32,000 nucleotides of DNA. Origin: Verrucomicrobiota bacterium (lineage in GTDB: Bacteria > Verrucomicrobiota > Verrucomicrobiia > Chthoniobacterales > UBA6821). Position 1 is the stretch's first letter; every line of letters begins with the position of its first letter. Position numbers and translations under genes: made by a program. The DNA lies in contig WBXG01000003.1 in assembly GCA_008932965.1 (NCBI GenBank), positions 19,193 through 51,192 of the forward strand. Reading direction: 5' to 3'. The notes under the pieces are model-generated. The model was not told the DNA's origin, did not search any database, and was given only the letters and a program-made list of their open reading frames with translations. Shown one piece after another: positions 2,034 to 32,000 of this stretch.

Positions 2034-3626
2034 TTAGATTTCAACTTTGGGAGTAAAGTATTTTGCAATCGCCTCCACAAGCCCAGGAATATCATGCTCT
2101 TCGGCCTCCACGCTCACAGGCATCTCCAGTACTTGCATCACACTTGAGGTCACCGGACCAATACTTGCCGTAGCGCAGTTAGCAGGAAATGGGAATCCTC
2201 TTTTCTTTAGGAGTTCCTGAAAATGTTCTGCTGTTGAGCCGCTAGTAAAGGTGATCATATCGACTTTCTCTTCACAAAAACGTTGAAGCCCCCCACCTTC
2301 ATCATTGAGTTCGGGAAGAGTATCGTAAACAGGAACGTCATCGACAATGGCTCCAAGATCTTCAAGAGCTATTGCTAATAATTCTCGAGCTCCGCTAGCC
2401 CGAGGTAATAGAATACGCAGATTTTCTACATTCACTTTTTTCAGCTCCTCGAGTAAGGATTCTGCCACAAATTGAGGAGGAATCAGGTCTACTGAAAAAC
2501 GATACTCTTCTATTTTTTTTGCAGTTCCCGGACCAATGGCTGCAATACGCGCTGCTCCTAATGAACGAGCATCATGATGGTGGAGATAAAAGGCTTCAAA
2601 AAAAGAAGTCACTCCATTAGGGCTTGTAAAGACAATCCAATCATACTGATGGGCAGCAGTAACAGCCTCAGCAAAGGCTTCTCGTTCCTCTTTCTTTTGA
2701 ATCGCTTCTATACGAATGGTAGGAAGTTCAAAGGCATCAGCACCGAGCTCGCGTAAGAGCTTAACCAATTCACTAGCTTTATCGCGAGTACGAGTGACAG
2801 CAATACAACGTCCAAAAAGGGGACGTGTCTCAAACCAGTTCAGTTTTTTTCGAAGAGAAACAACCTCCCCAAAAACAGCAATGCAGGGAGCTGAAAATTG
2901 CTTTTCCTGAGCAATAGAAGCAATTGTTTCAAGCGTTCCGGTAATGGTCTTGTGACGGCCTGTTGTAGCCCATCGGACAAGGGCTACAGGAGTTGTTGAT
3001 TCCATTCCTGCAGCAATCAAGGAATGCGTAATCGAACTCAATCGTTCAACACCCATGAGCATGACTTTGGTTCCAGGAGCTGTCGCTAGGGAGTGATAAT
3101 TTAAGGATGAGGCCTCTTTGGAGGGATCTTCATGACCAGTAAAAATCGTGAGTTGAGAATTATTACTGCGATGGGTAACCGGAATGCCAGCATAAGCAAG
3201 TCCCCCAATGGCAGAGGTAACCCCAGGGACAATTTCAAAACGTAGAGAGGCATGTGCTAAGGCTTCAGCCTCCTCTCCACCACGACCAAAGAGAAAAGGA
3301 TCTCCTCCCTTAAGACGTACAACTCGGTGACCTTCTTGTGTCTTTTTCACAAGCAACTCATTAATTTCTTGCTGAGGTAGAGCATGTTTTTTTGCACTCT
3401 TGCCAACGTAGATTTTTTCTGCGTTGGGAGGAACATGACGAAGAAGCTCTTTGTTACAAAGATAGTCATAAAGAACAACCTCAGCACGCGAGAGACATTC
3501 TTTTCCACGAAGAGTGAGGAGCCCAGGATCACCAGGACCTGCCCCCACTAGATAACAAATACCATCATGCTTTTGGGGAGGTTTTATTTTTCTTTTGGAG
3601 TTAGGAGAAGTTGATTTTTGATTCAT
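2034..3626 (-). CDS. cobA: Bifunctional uroporphyrinogen-III C-methyltransferase / uroporphyrinogen-III synthase (CobA-HemD fusion)
   Basis: 530-aa ORF. The N-terminal half has SUMT motifs VGAGPGDPGLLTLRG and LKGGDPFLFGRGGEE. The C-terminal ~250 aa has HemD-like FTSPNGV and FTSGSTA motifs. The start overlaps the hemC stop (ATGA at 3623-3626). Confidence 0.88.
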   Translation of the reverse strand: MNQKSTSPNSKRKIKPPQKHDGICYLVGAGPGDPGLLTLRGKECLSRAEVVLYDYLCNKELLRHVPPNAEKIYVGKSAKKHALPQQEINELLVKKTQEGHRVVRLKGGDPFLFGRGGEEAEALAHASLRFEIVPGVTSAIGGLAYAGIPVTHRSNNSQLTIFTGHEDPSKEASSLNYHSLATAPGTKVMLMGVERLSSITHSLIAAGMESTTPVALVRWATTGRHKTITGTLETIASIAQEKQFSAPCIAVFGEVVSLRKKLNWFETRPLFGRCIAVTRTRDKASELVKLLRELGADAFELPTIRIEAIQKKEEREAFAEAVTAAHQYDWIVFTSPNGVTSFFEAFYLHHHDARSLGAARIAAIGPGTAKKIEEYRFSVDLIPPQFVAESLLEELKKVNVENLRILLPRASGARELLAIALEDLGAIVDDVPVYDTLPELNDEGGGLQRFCEEKVDMITFTSGSTAEHFQELLKKRGFPFPANCATASIGPVTSSVMQVLEMPVSVEAEEHDIPGLVEAIAKYFTPKVEI

Positions 3627-6504: not shown

Positions 6505-6758
6505 TTAACCCGCATATTTCATACTGGTTCGTCGTGAGGCGCCGCGAATCCAGATGCAGACACCACCGGCGGTCGGGAGACTGCGGTGGAGACTGCCCTG
6601 AAAGGGCGAGACGAGCGGGAGCAAGCGAGTCAACGAAGGTGATGGATTGCGACGACGGCTGTATGTCTCATACTGCCCGAGGAGCAATTCGAAGCTGACG
6701 CAGTATCCATCAGGTTTTCGCAAGCCGCAGCAGAATCGGTATGAAATAGGCGGGTTAA
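6505..6758 (+). mobile_element. MITE-like repeat, copy A (long variant, 254 bp)
   Basis: Ends TTAACCCGCATATTTCATAC (6505-6524) and GTATGAAATAGGCGGGTTAA (6739-6758) are inverted repeats. Central stem GGATTGC 6644-6650 / GCAATTC 6684-6690. Homologous to copies at 13139, 17244, 23673, 27664 and 31856. Carries extra GC-rich internal sequence, approximately 6545-6640, that the shorter copies lack. Confidence 0.9.
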
Positions 6759-10449: not shown

Positions 10450-10466
10450 GCATATTTCATACTGAT
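10450..10466. repeat. Short fragment of the repeat-family terminus
   Basis: GCATATTTCATACTGA is identical to the left-end motif of copies at 17244 and 21741. No matching partner end was found in this spacer. Confidence 0.4.
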
Positions 10467-10727
10467 TCTTAGTGAATCTCTGAGCAGCATAATGCAGTCA
10501 GAATAGTGCATGCTAATCATGGCAAGGAAGAAAGTGCCCCGCAATGCCGTTAAGGATGCTAAACCGTTCCATTAAGAAAAGGTGGATATCGCTAATCGAA
10601 ATGCTGAAGTCCAATAAAGGCATGTCATTATTTCGTCTAGTAGAGATTTCCGTAATGTTTTACATAGGTCCGGGAGCAATATATACCGGTATCTCGAACA
10701 CCGCAGGGCATAGAGATGCTAATGTAT

Positions 10728-13082
10728 CTACGATCTAACTTCAACACCTAATAGCTCCTGGAGCCGAACAATCAATCGATCACAGGCAGAAGTGACTTCT
10801 TGAGTAGTTAAGGTGCGATCCTCGTGTTGGAATGTTAATTGTAGTGTTACTGATTTTTTTTCTACTGCAATTTTCTCTCCAGTAGGATCCATAAAGATAT
10901 CAAGAGGGATGATCTTTTTAAGAAGTGGTTCTTGCGCTGCTTGGAGTTCTTTTTCAAGAAGTTCGTAGGGTACTAGCGTGTCCATTACCATTGCAAGATC
11001 ACGCGTGATGGTTGGAAGTTTTGAAAGCCCCTCCTCTTTTTTCCATGAATCACGTTCTGCGGCATGTTGAAGAGCAGTCACTTCGAGTTCAGCAACACTG
11101 AGAGAGTATTCCTGCCCTGTCACCGTGATTTTACGGGCCATTGCAGGAGCCATGAGTCCAATATATCCGCAGTATTGCCCATCACAAAAAACATCAAGCA
11201 TCCTAGCCATTATTGGGGGTAATGCTCGTACGGAAGGACGATAACTCATTTTTCCTGGAACTAAATGATCAAGGACTCCTTTTAAATCAAAGAGATCTAG
11301 CGAGCGCGGGACTTCTTCTCGCCAGGAAAGAGGGAGGGCGTTGCCGGTCATGATAAGGCCAATTAAGATCCGTTCTTCCTCTTTAGTGATATTGCCAAAA
11401 ACTTTTCCCATTTCAAACATGCGAACCGAATGTGCTCCCTGATAAAGATTATGCTTTACCACCTCTTGTAATCCGGAGATCAGGCCTGCTCTTAAAACCG
11501 ATTGTTGTTCCCCTAATGGATTACAAAGCCTCAGAGCCTCAGAGGAAGAGCTCTCTAGTGGAACTAAGGCACTGGTACGGGCTTCATAAAAACCACTAGC
11601 AATCAAACGCCGACGCAAAAGCATCATAAAATCATGGATCTTATCGGTTGGACTTGAAGGAACAGAAAAACTTAACGTACGAGCCTTGATCGATTCCAGC
11701 CCGTAGAGACGGGCGACTTCTTCGATGAGGTCGATTTCACGCGTGAGGTCGAGACGCCACGGAGGGATTTGCCACCCCGTGTCACAGGAAAAGAGTCCAA
11801 ATTTTTTTAATAGCAAAGAAATTTCTTCATCTTGAAGAGAAATTCCAAGCAGCTGACGACAACGATCGAAGCGAAAGAGGACCTCAGTTGGCAATAGCAT
11901 TTCTCCAGCGATGCTAACTTCATGAGATGCTACAGCGCCTGAAATTTCAATGATCATAGCAGTAGCACGTGCTGAAGCTTCTCTAGCATTATCTGCCTGA
12001 GAACCCCGTTCAAAACGATAGGAAGCATCGGTTGCTAATCCATGAGCACGAGCAGAAGCGCGAATCATGCTAGAATTAAAAACAGCACTTTCCAATAAAA
12101 TGGATTTTGTCTCTTTGGTAACGCTACTTTCAAGACCACCAATAATCCCTGCTAAGGCTTGAGCCCCCTTTTCATCGGCAATCACCAGATCAGAAGATCG
12201 TAGTAAATATGTTTTTCCATCGAGCAAGCTTATCTTTTCTCCCTCCGTTGCAAAACGAACCGTGAGTGCTCCTTGAATTTTATCAGCATCAAAAGCATGC
12301 AGCGGATGCCCCATTTCCATCATTACGTAATTTGTAACATCAACGATATTGTTGATACTTCTTAATCCAATCGCCTCAAGGCGTTGTTGTAACCATGAGG
12401 GGCTAGTCTTGACTGCAGTATTGGAAATAGAGCGTAAGCTATAGAAGGAACAAGCATGAGAATCTTCAATAGCAGCACGAGAACTCTCTTTTTTTACTAA
12501 TGGGAGTATCACCTCATTGCGAAAAAACTCCCCAGCTCCGAAAGCTGCAGCTTCACGAGCCACACCAACATGTCCTAACCAATCTGGACGATTTGGAGTG
12601 ATTTCTAACTCCAAAATTGTATCACTTGGAAACAGCGCGCCAAACTCAGTCCCAATAACGGTCTTAGGATCGAGAATATGAAGCCCTTCCCCCCCTTCTC
12701 CTAGCCCAAGTTCTTTTGCACTACACATCATTCCTTCACTCTCTACTCCGCGAAGCTTACCCACTTTAATTTTGATTCCACCTGGAAGAACCGCTCCCGG
12801 TAGGGCAAGGAGCACTTTATCTCCTACCTTGTAATTTTTAGCACCACACACAATCTGACGTGGAACTCCACTTCCCTCATCGACCTTACAGACACACAAG
12901 CGATCAGCATTAGGATGCTGTTCCGAAGAGAGAATCTGAACAACGATCACACTAGCAATGCTAGCTCCGGAGGTAGTGATCGACTTCACTTCGATTCCAG
13001 AGCGTGTTAACGTTTCTGCTAGCGCTTCTGCGGTTTGCGTTGTTTTAAGATAATCGTGGAGCCACGAGAGAGAGATTTTCAT
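10728..13082 (-). CDS. pheT: Phenylalanine--tRNA ligase beta subunit
   Basis: 784-aa ORF. N-terminal MKISLSWLHDYL and the tRNA-binding, B3/4, B5 and C-terminal anticodon-binding layout typical of PheT. Lies downstream of pheS. Confidence 0.95.
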   Translation of the reverse strand: MKISLSWLHDYLKTTQTAEALAETLTRSGIEVKSITTSGASIASVIVVQILSSEQHPNADRLCVCKVDEGSGVPRQIVCGAKNYKVGDKVLLALPGAVLPGGIKIKVGKLRGVESEGMMCSAKELGLGEGGEGLHILDPKTVIGTEFGALFPSDTILELEITPNRPDWLGHVGVAREAAAFGAGEFFRNEVILPLVKKESSRAAIEDSHACSFYSLRSISNTAVKTSPSWLQQRLEAIGLRSINNIVDVTNYVMMEMGHPLHAFDADKIQGALTVRFATEGEKISLLDGKTYLLRSSDLVIADEKGAQALAGIIGGLESSVTKETKSILLESAVFNSSMIRASARAHGLATDASYRFERGSQADNAREASARATAMIIEISGAVASHEVSIAGEMLLPTEVLFRFDRCRQLLGISLQDEEISLLLKKFGLFSCDTGWQIPPWRLDLTREIDLIEEVARLYGLESIKARTLSFSVPSSPTDKIHDFMMLLRRRLIASGFYEARTSALVPLESSSSEALRLCNPLGEQQSVLRAGLISGLQEVVKHNLYQGAHSVRMFEMGKVFGNITKEEERILIGLIMTGNALPLSWREEVPRSLDLFDLKGVLDHLVPGKMSYRPSVRALPPIMARMLDVFCDGQYCGYIGLMAPAMARKITVTGQEYSLSVAELEVTALQHAAERDSWKKEEGLSKLPTITRDLAMVMDTLVPYELLEKELQAAQEPLLKKIIPLDIFMDPTGEKIAVEKKSVTLQLTFQHEDRTLTTQEVTSACDRLIVRLQELLGVEVRS

Positions 13083-13138: not shown

Positions 13139-13299
13139 CTAACCCGAATATTTCATCCAGATCTACTACGGAAGCCGGGAAGCCAGATGGATGCTGGGCA
13201 GTATGAGCCCTACCGCCCCAATCACAATTCGAGAGCAACGTAGTAGCCATAGAGCGTTACACAAGTCGTAATAAATGGAGTATGAAATATTCGAGTTAA
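13139..13299 (+). mobile_element. MITE-like repeat, copy B (161 bp), in the pheS-pheT spacer
   Basis: Ends CTAACCCGAATATTTCAT and ATGAAATATTCGAGTTAA. The left arm CTACGGAAGCCGGGAAGCCAGATGGATGC is the reverse complement of the arm seen at 17037-17065. The core GCTGGGCAGTATGAGCCCTACC...ATCACAATTCGAGAGC is shared with copies F and G. Confidence 0.9.
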
Positions 13300-15486: not shown

Positions 15487-17043
15487 TTAATAGGCTATCT
15501 TGGGTTTAAATGTAGCCGCTTCTTTTGAAAGCAGATGACCTGTGACTTTACCAGGAGCCCCCAGGCTCTCTTGTACTACTTTTGATGATGGTGCGGTCGA
15601 TCCTACCGCTAGTGCCAGGGCTGCTAGTGTTGTAGAATAATCAGAGACAGCTGTTGCTAATTCTGATTGTGCTAAACTTAAATTACTTCCCGCCTCAGAA
15701 TAATCGGTCACATTTGCAAGTCCTGTTTCTGTTGCAGCACTAATAGAACGAAAGAATTCATTTGCTGATGCAACAAACCCTTCTGCGTACCCGACTCTCT
15801 CTGCAGCCGCAAGACTGTTATTATAAGCAGTCCAAACATCACGCGTTGTATCAAGTTGCGTCTCTCTTAATTTTTGTTCTGCCACTTTGTCCTCCTCTTG
15901 ACGACGCTTCATTTTAAAGACACGATCAAATCCATCAAAGAGATCCCAATGTGCCGTTACATAAGCACTTCCGTAGGGAACACCCACTCCATTAAAGTAG
16001 CCATTAGCAGTAGAGTTGGGTTGAAAGCCCTGATATCCAAACGTTGTATTAGCATATTGACTTTCTATTTTAATGGTTGGGAAAAAATCAGACATGGCTC
16101 TTTTTGTTGCTTCTTTACTGGCTTTAAGCTCCTGCACTCGTGCTGCAAGATCAGGACGCAAGCGGAGAGCTTCTTGAATCAGTTCATTGGCATCACCACG
16201 TAATTTTTTTGTGGAGGGAGGTTTTTCTGATTCCACAAACTCCAATGGACTATTTGCAGGAATGCCGACAGTGATACAGAGCTCTCCTAATGTATTGCGC
16301 ACAACGGCAATTGCGGACTCTACTTCATATTGAGATTCGAGAACACGTTTACGTGCTTTTAATTCCTCGGGGTCTGCAGTGAGTCCGGTAACTCTTTGAC
16401 GAACAATCATGTCACTTAATGTTTGAGTAAAAACAAGATTGGCTTCGGCTGCTTTTTTCTTCCAAAGGGCTGCTTCATATGAAAAATAATTTTTTTGAAC
16501 ATTAAAAATGACCTCTTGTAATGTACGTTGATAAGTAAGTCCTAGGGCGTGAAAAATTGCGATCGTACGCTGCACATCAGCATCCCTTCTCCCAAAATCA
16601 AGCAAGATATATTCCATGCTTAAAAAAACGGTAGCCTGAGTGCGATTTGCTCCGTTGGGTCCTGTTACAGGGATAAGATAGGATTGATCGTATCCCCCCA
16701 CAAAATCGGATCGTACCCAGGGATAATAAAGAGAACGAGCTTCCCCTACCGATGCAGAGGCTGCTTTGGCCTGACTCCATGCAGCCCGAGTCATAGGATT
16801 ATTTTTGAGAGCTAAATCAATAAGGCTTCCCAAGTGATACTTTTCATTAGGATGAAAAGCAGCAGCTAAGGCCGCTTCATGAGAAATAAAACTTTTATCT
16901 TTAGGAGAAGAAAATAAATTTTTGCCCGAGGGATCGATGACTTCTACCGCAAAGACAGGGGAAAAAAATGCCGCAACGATCAAAAGAAATAGGGATTTTT
17001 TATACCAATCACCTACGGAAGCTGGAATGCTCGAAGCATCCAT
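15487..17043 (-). CDS. TolC-like outer membrane efflux protein (OMF family)
   Basis: Two-repeat OEP architecture with long alpha-helical, coiled-coil-like segments. A signal peptide (KKSLFLLIVAAFFSPVFA) follows the ATG at 17043. The longest ORF starts at 17112. Both candidate starts lie in repeat-derived sequence. Confidence 0.8.
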   Translation of the reverse strand: MDASSIPASVGDWYKKSLFLLIVAAFFSPVFAVEVIDPSGKNLFSSPKDKSFISHEAALAAAFHPNEKYHLGSLIDLALKNNPMTRAAWSQAKAASASVGEARSLYYPWVRSDFVGGYDQSYLIPVTGPNGANRTQATVFLSMEYILLDFGRRDADVQRTIAIFHALGLTYQRTLQEVIFNVQKNYFSYEAALWKKKAAEANLVFTQTLSDMIVRQRVTGLTADPEELKARKRVLESQYEVESAIAVVRNTLGELCITVGIPANSPLEFVESEKPPSTKKLRGDANELIQEALRLRPDLAARVQELKASKEATKRAMSDFFPTIKIESQYANTTFGYQGFQPNSTANGYFNGVGVPYGSAYVTAHWDLFDGFDRVFKMKRRQEEDKVAEQKLRETQLDTTRDVWTAYNNSLAAAERVGYAEGFVASANEFFRSISAATETGLANVTDYSEAGSNLSLAQSELATAVSDYSTTLAALALAVGSTAPSSKVVQESLGAPGKVTGHLLSKEAATFKPKIAY

Positions 17044-17091
17044 CTGACTTCCCGGCTTCCGTAGGTAATCGCGATGAAATATCCGGGCTAG
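17012..17091 (+). repeat. Partial repeat-family copy C (right arm plus inner part of left arm)
   Basis: GCATCCATCTGACTTCCCGGCTTCCGTAGGTAATCGCGATGAAATATCCGGGCTAG matches the arm at 30884-30941 and the reverse complement of 13139-13190. There is an internal perfect 11-bp inverted repeat, 17012-17022 / 17055-17065. A further terminus fragment GAATATTTCATACT lies at 17102-17115. Confidence 0.75.
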
Positions 17092-17243: not shown

Positions 17244-17359
17244 TTAGCCCGCATATTTCATACTGAAGTGTCATGAGGCGCCGTGCAAAGCTTATTAGGA
17301 CCAGGTACGTGAGCCTTCGCGACCTCCTCTTCATGATCAGTATGAAATAGCTAGTTTAA
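17244..17359. mobile_element. MITE-like repeat, copy D (minimal 116-bp form: two arms, no central core)
   Basis: Left end TTAGCCCGCATATTTCATACTGAAGTGTCATGAGGCGCC. The right end ...CCTCCTCTTCATGATCAGTATGAAATAGCTAGTTTAA is its imperfect inverted repeat. The reverse complement of the right arm resembles the left arms of copies at 23673 and 31856. Confidence 0.85.
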
Positions 17360-21740: not shown

Positions 21741-21780
21741 CTAGCCCGCATATTTCATACTGAAGTGTCATGAGGCGCTA
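21741..21780. repeat. Truncated repeat-family copy E (left arm only)
   Basis: 21742-21778 is identical over 37 nt to 17245-17281 (TAGCCCGCATATTTCATACTGAAGTGTCATGAGGCGC). Similarity ends at CTAA (21778-21781), which contains the mutL stop codon. Confidence 0.85.
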
Positions 21781-23672: not shown

Positions 23673-23857
23673 TTAGCCCGCCTATTTCCAACTAATTGTG
23701 ACGAGGAAGCCGCGAAGGCTGATGGGATAAGGCGAATGAAGGATTGTGATGCTGGGCTGTAGAAGTCCCTATCACCTCAATCACCATTCAAGACCAATGC
23801 AGTAACAATGAGCTTTCCACAAGCCGTAATAAATTTAGTATGAAATATGCGGGTTAA
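23673..23857 (+). mobile_element. MITE-like repeat, copy F (185 bp)
   Basis: Ends TTAGCCCGCCTATTTCC... and ...GTATGAAATATGCGGGTTAA. Central stem GGATTGTGAT 23741-23750 / ATCACCATTC 23780-23789. The right half is near-identical to copy G. Confidence 0.9.
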
Positions 23858-27663: not shown

Positions 27664-27828
27664 TACATATTTCGCCCACTTCAAGCAAAACTTTACTGCA
27701 AGACGCTCCAAGGATTGTGATGCCAGGCTGTATGAGTCCCTACCAACAAAATCACAATTCGAGACTAATGCAGTAATGATGAGCTTTCCACAAGCCATAA
27801 TAAATTTAGTATGAAATAGGCGGGTTAA
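27664..27828 (+). mobile_element. MITE-like repeat, copy G (left arm degenerate)
   Basis: 27710-27828 aligns closely with 23739-23857 (copy F), including the stem GGATTGTGAT 27712-27721 / ATCACAATTC 27751-27760 and the terminus GTATGAAATAGGCGGGTTAA. Upstream only a weak CATATTTC remnant (27666-27673) marks the left end. Confidence 0.8.
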
Positions 27829-30296: not shown

Positions 30297-30881
30297 TTGA
30301 AACACGAAGTATCATTATCAATTTTAAAAATAACTATTACTCTTTTCATGATTCCTCACACATTGCTACTACTTTTATTATTAGAAATAGCGACTGTATC
30401 ACTCAGCGCAGCTGAGACAGCAACCTCAGCTATTCAGGCGCTCAGTGATTCAGGCCGACCTAACATGATGTCTGCAGTAGTAGAGATCAGGGGGGCTCAT
30501 GGAGAGCCACAACCCGAGGAATGGGTCATCATTTGCAATGATCCTACGGCACAAGGAGGAATCCGTGAATTAACGATCAAAGATCATCATATTATTTCCG
30601 AGCGAACACCTCTTTGTAGTTTTGAGGGTCAAGGGTCTTTACCGCAGCTTGACACTACTCGTATTACCATGGATTCCGGAACGATTTTTAAGGCTGCTAA
30701 TACCGAGGCAAAAAATCATCGTATTGGATTTGACGCTCTTACCTACACCATAAGAACGGACGCACTTACGGGCAAACCTCTTTGGATTGTACAACTTTAT
30801 AAAGCCGAGAAAAATGATGAACGGCTTGTTGGAACATTACAATTCTCTCCAGAAACGGGAGCTCTTATTAAGGGACTCTAA
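30297..30881 (+). CDS. Secreted hypothetical protein
   Basis: 194-aa ORF (TTG start at 30297, alternative ATG at 30348) with a hydrophobic N-terminus (LLLLLLLEIATVSLSA). No motif recognised. Its TAA stop lies in repeat copy H. Confidence 0.5.
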   Translation: MKHEVSLSILKITITLFMIPHTLLLLLLLEIATVSLSAAETATSAIQALSDSGRPNMMSAVVEIRGAHGEPQPEEWVIICNDPTAQGGIRELTIKDHHIISERTPLCSFEGQGSLPQLDTTRITMDSGTIFKAANTEAKNHRIGFDALTYTIRTDALTGKPLWIVQLYKAEKNDERLVGTLQFSPETGALIKGL

Positions 30882-30941
30882 TGCAGCATCCATCTAGCTT
30901 CCCGGCTTACGAGGGTGATCGGGATGAAATATCCGGGTTAA
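30878..30941 (+). repeat. Partial repeat-family copy H (right arm)
   Basis: CTAATGCAGCATCCATCTAGCTTCCCGGCTTACGAGGGTGATCGGGATGAAATATCCGGGTTAA aligns with 17037-17091 and with 31977-32000. Confidence 0.8.
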
Positions 30942-31837: not shown

Positions 31838-31855
31838 TCCGAAGAGATATGCGGG

Positions 31856-32000
31856 CTAGCCCGGATGTTTCATACTAATCGTGACGAGGAGGCCGCGAAG
31901 GCTGATGGGGTAAGGCAGGCGAGTATTTTGATGCAGGGCTGTATGTGTACATACTGCCCAAATCAAAATGGGAGTCTAACGCAGCATCCATCTGACTTCC
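31856..32000 (+). mobile_element. MITE-like repeat, copy I (cut by window end)
   Basis: Left end CTAGCCCGGATGTTTCATACTAATCGTGACGAGGAGGCCGCGAAGGCTGATGG resembles copy F. Central stem ATTTTGAT 31925-31932 / ATCAAAAT 31962-31969. The right arm begins CTAACGCAGCATCCATCTGACTTCC, as in copies C and H. Confidence 0.85.

Follow-up and report, generated by a model that had tools for sequence, protein, structure and literature searches.

The window, i.e. the whole stretch of 32,000 nt that was analysed, stems from an uncultured freshwater verrucomicrobium and holds, among others, pheS and pheT, mutL, a gene for Fe-S cluster biosynthesis, a ccsB-like gene and a gene for 6S RNA. An ORF of 547 aa without a match in Pfam or NCBIfam lies between the Fe-S cluster biosynthesis gene and the ccsB-like gene. 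Scattered along the window are ten copies or fragments of a single repeat (Table 1), which add up to ~1.3 kb. This dense repeat, filling ~4% of the window, is now explained: it is a MITE (a miniature, non-coding and non-autonomous transposon) of the IS1380 type, with inverted ends of 19 nt. The ORFs that overlap the copies gave no match in Pfam, and the sole match of the window in Rfam 15 is the 6S RNA, away from the repeat. When the Rfam threshold was relaxed, two copies in tandem gave nothing but chance matches to miRNAs (19-20 bits).

Table 1. Copies and fragments of the MITE and neighbouring features, in coordinates of the 32,000-nt window
Feature	Position	Strand	Description
Copy A	6506..6757	+	Complete long variant, 252 nt, both inverted ends, TTAA on each side
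Extra module of Copy A	~6556-6634		~72 nt, in the left arm
Central stem-loop of Copy A	6644-6690		
Degenerate end fragment	10450..10500	uncertain	73% identity to the left end of Copy A; adjoins the 6S RNA gene
6S RNA gene	10532-10712	-	Rfam RF00013, 55.4 bits, full-length match
Copy B	13140..13298	+	159 nt, in the pheS-pheT intergenic spacer; mosaic
Copy C	16993..17090	+	Right arm with inverted end and a degenerate partner, short hairpin; without apical module
Copy D	17245..17358	+	114 nt; two arms joined, apex deleted
Copy E	21742..21778	+	37-nt left-end fragment, 100% identity to the left end of Copy D
Copy F	23674..23856	+	183 nt, complete; mosaic, left and right arm from different subfamilies
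Central stem of Copy F	23741-23789		Apical helix decayed
ORF of 547 aa	24323-25966	+	
Copy G	27683..27827	+	5'-truncated, without left inverted end; 3' half of apical helix decayed
Copy H	30806..30940	+	Right half with inverted end
Copy I	31857..32000	+	Member of the youngest subfamily; runs past the window end, extended to 174 nt via contig L148
Central two-helix stem-loop of Copy I	31925-31969		

A standard copy measures 182 nt. Complete copies, with inverted ends on both sides, range from 114 to 281 nt, which is within the size of bacterial MITEs (below ~400-500 bp); those of 252-281 nt are long variants whose left arm has an additional module. The five copies with a core (A, B, F, G and I) share one orientation in the window, which may be chance, as both orientations occur on other contigs of the same organism. 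Some flanks coincide with the ends of genes: pheS takes its TAA stop codon from the TTAA flank of Copy B (13296-13298), and Copy E, which is truncated, adjoins the stop codon of mutL (21778-21780). The degenerate end fragment is located just upstream of the 6S RNA gene. The YTAR target includes TAA or TAG and may thereby direct insertions toward gene ends.

The inverted ends read TARCCCGnnTATTTCATAC ... GTATGAAATAnnCGGGYTA, and for this 19-nt motif 13 occurrences were counted in the window where 0.09 are expected. Both the ends (CCCGnnTATTTCAT...) and the YTAR flanks match those of insertion sequences of the IS1380 family, the prokaryotic relatives of piggyBac, for which they have been used as outgroup (PMC10813416). 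YTAR was found at 32 of 38 flanks of the MITE copies, and only 6 of 19 copies have identical flanks on the two sides; the flanks are compatible with a 4-bp duplication as well as with a duplication of TA inside the YTAR target.

In other genomes, among them those of Opitutales and other Verrucomicrobiota, the same ends are found on full-length insertion sequences of 1.57-1.68 kb. One of these is an element of 1664 bp (L046, 1386-3049) with CTAA at both sides, whose transposase was assigned by Pfam to DDE_Tnp_1_4 (PF13701, E = 2.4e-153); Pfam confirmation applies to this element alone, and the other full-length elements were matched to it by tblastn. Eleven full-length elements, hand-picked from the candidate end pairs, all have YTAR flanks, with identical duplications in eight. 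The window copies thus resemble the IS1380 family in the terminal sequence CCCGGATATTTCAT... and in the YTAR/TTAA-like target. Unlike the full-length elements they have no transposase, they are 114-252 nt long, and their left and right halves are complementary over the whole length instead of over only ~28 nt. No cognate full-length IS1380 element or transposase was found in ~150 kb from the sample of the organism, so that mobilisation in trans is an assumption, and this absence counts against the explanation that we prefer below.

Further relatives were collected by several scans. Among the matches listed by a scan of a genome collection with a 17-nt end motif, a pattern length at which many matches are probably due to chance, were full-length IS1380 elements, related MITEs of two MAGs (Spartobacteria and Chthoniobacter) and, from several phyla, foldback MITE families that are unrelated but have the same ends. 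A metagenome scan with an arm motif yielded 27 contigs, several of which come from the window's own sample and are dense in copies. Near-identical members of the youngest subfamily (compared over the central 82 nt) are present on five other contigs (L125, L140, L145, L147 and L152). A covariance model of the central module brought no members beyond the Chthoniobacterales-type copies that had already been collected.

Complete copies are predicted to fold back into a single long, imperfect hairpin. The two ends pair with each other and make up its basal stem, which is followed by an asymmetric internal loop and, at the tip, by an apical module of two helices. The preliminary description had singled out a central stem-loop maintained by compensatory substitutions; that stem-loop is the apical module, the tip of a hairpin that spans the whole MITE, and not a free-standing structure. 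When all left arms were aligned to the reverse complements of all right arms, every left arm and every inverted right arm proved to be mutually homologous. The arms nevertheless have their own signatures (AAGGCrGGCGAg in the left arm, GAGTCTAACGCAGCA in the right arm), which form the conserved asymmetric internal loop between the basal stem and the apical module. Likewise, a T.T mismatch in the apical module is kept in nearly all copies. Unpaired asymmetries of this type are fixed across subfamilies, and the pairing is kept by change on two sides; in the youngest subfamily 67 of 88 positions are paired.

The extra module of the long variants (72-100 nt, CCACCGGCGG...GAGTCAACG) occupies one and the same site in the internal loop of the left arm in five copies of differing arm type, namely Copy A and the copies at L121 1468-1737, L124 1536-1816, L142 552-815 and L145 4430-4700, and it is predicted to fold by itself. 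Copies also occur head-to-tail with one common TTAA, or beside remnant ends (L145 4430-4880, L140 3067-3381 and window 31844-31875), an arrangement that suggests repeated insertion into a target site remade by an earlier copy.

The pairing of the arms could be traced exactly in the individual copies, and all eight arm sequences and positions that had been reported were correct. In Copy G, GGATTGTGAT (27712-27721) pairs with ATCACAATTC (27751-27760), giving ten pairs including one G.T. In Copy F, 23741-23750 pairs with 23780-23789 with one mismatch, in Copy I ATTTTGAT (31925-31932) with ATCAAAAT (31962-31969), and in Copy A GGATTGC (6644-6650) with GCAATTC (6684-6690). Folding of the copies on both strands, compared with shuffled sequences, gave a divided picture. 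Copy I stands out whichever strand is folded (z = -3.9 for + and -4.0 for -) and Copy A on the + strand (-2.7, against -0.9 on the - strand), whereas Copy G (-1.4 and +0.1) and Copy F (-0.95 and -0.2) do not. The pairing in G and F is real on inspection; thermodynamically it is not unusual, because the z-scores are near the shuffled level.

Compensatory changes in the stem, as proposed at the outset, are statistically supported across 23 distinct copies, and it is the fold rather than the sequence that is conserved. For the central module, 23 distinct central regions were aligned with MAFFT and the 19 pairs of the two-helix fold were counted: 84.9% of the cells are paired, compared with 77.7±1.1% when partners were shuffled (none of 500 shuffles as high) and 31-51% when partners were slid by 1-3 columns, and two-sided changes are found at 10 of the 19 pairs. 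One central pair, for example, is G-C in seven copies, U-A in seven and C-G in four, and another is U-A in ten, C-G in eight and U-G in three. For the whole hairpin (70 pairs, 18 copies) the paired fraction is 81.2%, compared with 77.1±0.6% after shuffling (again none of 500 as high) and 33-42% after sliding by 1-3 columns, and 29 of the 70 pairs are altered on both sides, a number matched by one of 500 shuffles. Since the pairing exceeds both the shuffled and the slid controls, in the central module and in the whole hairpin, the covariation is real, and the same pattern extends along the entire hairpin. Seven different outer-stem sequences, among which GGUGAUUUGGGUG/CACCCAAAUUACC of a related copy from a Pirellulales MAG, lead to the same predicted two-helix fold; as the copies have a common ancestry, only few compensatory events are independent, in the order of four to six stem types. 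We count this against the preferred explanation, and likewise that RNAalifold recovered the apical helix alone from the mixed alignment. With so clean a covariation, the repeat lends itself as a test case for whether hairpins of mobile repeats are kept for the spread of the element or for the host.

An inner helix (GGCTGTATG...CATACTGCC) was indeed found in copies A and I. Its presence had been taken to define two subfamilies, with B, F and G as the group that lacks it, and this division does not hold. The helix is the best conserved one of the family (90.8% paired in the central test and 92.5% in the whole-hairpin test), and F and G carry decayed versions of it; B keeps most of it. Moreover, a relative with the right-arm type of B, F and G (L135 3891-4068) has the inner helix in compensated form, as GTAGG/CCTAC, and consequently B, F and G do not constitute a helix-less subfamily. 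The inner helix is ancestral.

The two levels at which the changes can be read differ clearly. Matched changes distinguish subfamilies, whereas the pair states that are private to one copy comprise 70 of transversion type, 22 A.C, 18 G.T and only 16 that are still Watson-Crick. The mosaic copies, in turn, have broken outer stems: F combines the arms of two subfamilies, and B, which has an inverted right-type arm at the left (the inverted form of the right-arm type of C, H and I), is without a 5' arm in its outer stem. Copy D, with two arms but no apex, belongs to the mosaics as well. The proposal that the fold is under selection stands as far as element lineages are concerned; at individual loci, where the single-copy states mostly break pairs, such selection is not visible. 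Because matched changes separate the subfamilies and singletons mostly break pairs, we infer that selection acts on the source elements that multiply.

We consider the repeat an IS1380-type foldback MITE in which the pairing constraint probably serves the element's own spread. The constraint would then rest on the element lineages that go on multiplying and not on each inserted copy. Once inserted, copies would decay neutrally and recombine into mosaics. The foldback would form as a cruciform or in single-stranded DNA, and the fold could join the two ends for a transposase supplied in trans, such that only elements that keep the fold leave descendants. To our knowledge there is no experiment or known mechanism by which transposition in the IS1380 family requires a hairpin, which speaks against this explanation.

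A function of the hairpin as RNA for the host would place the selection differently. A stem-loop that is read through could stabilise, process or terminate neighbouring mRNAs, or yield a small RNA, and would be selected locus by locus. Such a function is suggested by the location of copies at gene ends and inside operons (e.g. pheS-pheT) and by similar roles that have been reported for Correia, ERIC and QMITE (PMC3184786, PMC5896051). In the central stem, 27 G.T stand against 7 A.C on the L-to-R strand; these derive from few events, and they could hint at a strand-specific, RNA-like constraint, which we count against the preferred explanation. Over the unbiased self-alignment, however, 128 G.T and 97 A.C show no clear strand signature, and the single-copy changes, mostly pair-breaking, have no wobble preference (18 G.T versus 22 A.C). 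A third count, of 138 G.T to 53 A.C on a structure derived with RNAfold, was discarded as biased by construction. Furthermore, the copies have no orientation bias with respect to incoming transcription (7 sense, 11 antisense), a scan for promoter- and terminator-like sites revealed no enrichment at the copies, F and G do not exceed shuffled sequences in folding strength, and the repeat has no match in Rfam. The counts fit RNA as well as single-stranded DNA or a cruciform as the folded molecule. There is no pointer to a strand-specific host RNA, and we regard this function as unlikely.

The homology of the arms raises another point, since the fold might not be selected at all. The two arms would then be old inverted copies of each other, and the matched changes would arise through template switching or short-patch gene conversion in the quasi-palindrome, together with recombination between copies. 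In line with this, all left arms and inverted right arms can be aligned as homologues, the mosaics show that arms recombine freely, and the missing strand signature suits a process at the level of DNA. Directly beside the covarying stems, however, the asymmetries (the T.T mismatch, GC versus TT and the loop motifs) persist in every subfamily, which argues against such correction of the arms because conversion tracts would tend to erase them. Nor is there a near-perfect palindrome, even in the youngest subfamily with its 67 paired positions out of 88, so that an unselected fold also appears improbable.

Finally, the arms could be symmetric binding sites that co-evolve with the transposase of each subfamily, in which case a hairpin is not needed. 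The inverted ends themselves covary trivially in this way, and the end-adjacent motifs TTCGTCGCGAG (left) and CGCAGCAGAA (right) recur, by reading, in elements from other phyla. Opposed to this, 65-90 nt separate the covarying central stem from either end, a single genus-level group contains at least seven stem sequences that are unrelated, and the conserved motifs are found in the unpaired loop and not in the stems. In the one full-length element examined in this respect (L046), the similarity of left and right end fades after ~28 nt. A protein-binding origin of the covariation is hence very unlikely.

Returning to the foldback MITE whose fold serves its own spread, a stronger version can be envisaged in which the foldback is the required, structure-specific substrate of the piggyBac-related transposases of the IS1380 family, and in which the enzyme or a host factor reads the folded strand or the cruciform. 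We give this version rather little chance. If it is true, MITE families of several phyla that have these ends in common would all keep a whole-length hairpin, a GTAY...RTAC tip and fixed loop motifs for this reason, and it would mean structure-dependent mobilisation in a DDE family that is thought to use ordinary duplex ends. The unrelated same-end MITE families originate from Gammaproteobacteria, Deltaproteobacteria, Endozoicomonas, Nitrosomonas, Rhodanobacteraceae, Hydrogenedentota and Pirellulales (contigs L014, L016/L066/L090, L053, L097/L103/L113, L116 and L119). Most of them are predicted to be single long hairpins (-64 to -127 kcal/mol), and many have a GTAY...RTAC-like tip.

The fold may have been inherited from the full-length relatives. 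In these a long leader hairpin is found between the left end and the start codon of the transposase, the 3' arm of which covers the ATG or GTG, and which looks like a conserved device for translational occlusion. Leader hairpins were seen in elements from several phyla (left ends of L017, L035, L037, L080, L095, L112, L022, L098, L107 and L046), and their sequences are mutually unrelated. The tip of the leader hairpin in L046 (GGTATGTAT...ATACATGTCC) resembles the apex of the MITE (CTGTATG...CATACTG). Deletion of the gene from a full-length element would leave an end, a hairpin and an end, and the fold of the MITE may therefore descend from the leader hairpin. Apart from the apex of L046, the leader hairpins and the MITE arms have no clear sequence in common, which counts against the preferred explanation.

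Conserved structure in repeated DNA is also known from integrons, in whose attC sites the structure and not the sequence is conserved; these sites have RYYYAAC and GTTRRRY core sites and belong to a cassette array with an integrase. By reading of the sequence, the copies in the window do not look like attC sites: their flanks are variable and do not match the core sites, and their neighbours are housekeeping genes (pheST, mutL, mlaE).

Compensatory change in mobile repeats is a signal that is already known from other bacterial repeats, and the MITE does not represent a new type of system. A close parallel is bcr1, which is found in the Bacillus cereus group and was summarised by Delihas 2011: a repeat of ~155 nt, mobile and non-coding, with 5-bp direct repeats, which is transcribed, is described as cruciform-like at the RNA level and is reported to keep its fold by compensatory base-pair changes; such changes have also been reported for stem-loops of the IS605 type (PMC3184786). 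Like bcr1, the MITE is mobile and non-coding, has a compensated fold and comprises many destabilised copies, and its flanks may likewise be short direct repeats. Unlike bcr1 it has IS1380-type ends and YTAR flanks, and it belongs to another host phylum and has no sequence relation to it. Hairpins over the whole length are usual among bacterial MITEs (PMC10969869). Correia, ERIC, Chunjie and QMITE1/2 are likewise non-coding elements of 100-400 nt with inverted ends, an intergenic or gene-end location and very stable predicted hairpins (PMC3184786, PMC5896051, PMC10969869), and Chunjie also occurs inside an operon, as does Copy B at its pheS-pheT site. They differ in their inverted ends, their duplications (9 bp in Chunjie, 2-4 bp in QMITE1 and 7-11 bp in QMITE2; PMC5896051, PMC10969869) and their parent insertion sequences. 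Our search of the accessible literature yielded no MITE derived from IS1380. The known bacterial MITEs gain a family of the IS1380 type.

The GC content of 43% in combination with MITE-like repeats had suggested QMITE1 of Coxiella burnetii, an element of 300-400 bp with a conserved IHF site (WATCAANNNNTTR), orthologues of which have been reported to be absent elsewhere (PMC5896051). It was ruled out on the verrucomicrobial host and the standard length of 182 nt, because exact protein matches are restricted to a Verrucomicrobiae MAG and metagenome contigs; the comparison relies on host and length as described, as the text of that paper does not include the QMITE1 sequence.

The PheS of the window is 100% identical to that of the Verrucomicrobiae MAG, the next matches (71-82%) being from Chthoniobacterales MAGs, and the host is accordingly a member of Verrucomicrobiae with Chthoniobacterales as nearest relatives. 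PheT has matches on JGI metagenome contigs only. Neither nhmmer nor a scan for the end motif detected the element at any place of the locus, the space between pheS and pheT included, in the relatives L153 and L154. Short-read contigs of the organism tend to stop inside or beside MITE copies (L148, which ends at 10826, L120, L149 and L150), from which it follows that the MITE fragments the assemblies of its lineage. In a related Chthoniobacterales MAG (L152) a degenerate copy is present between pheS and pheT (3207-3385), and the 220-aa ORF that has been called between these two genes (2884-3546) reads through it.
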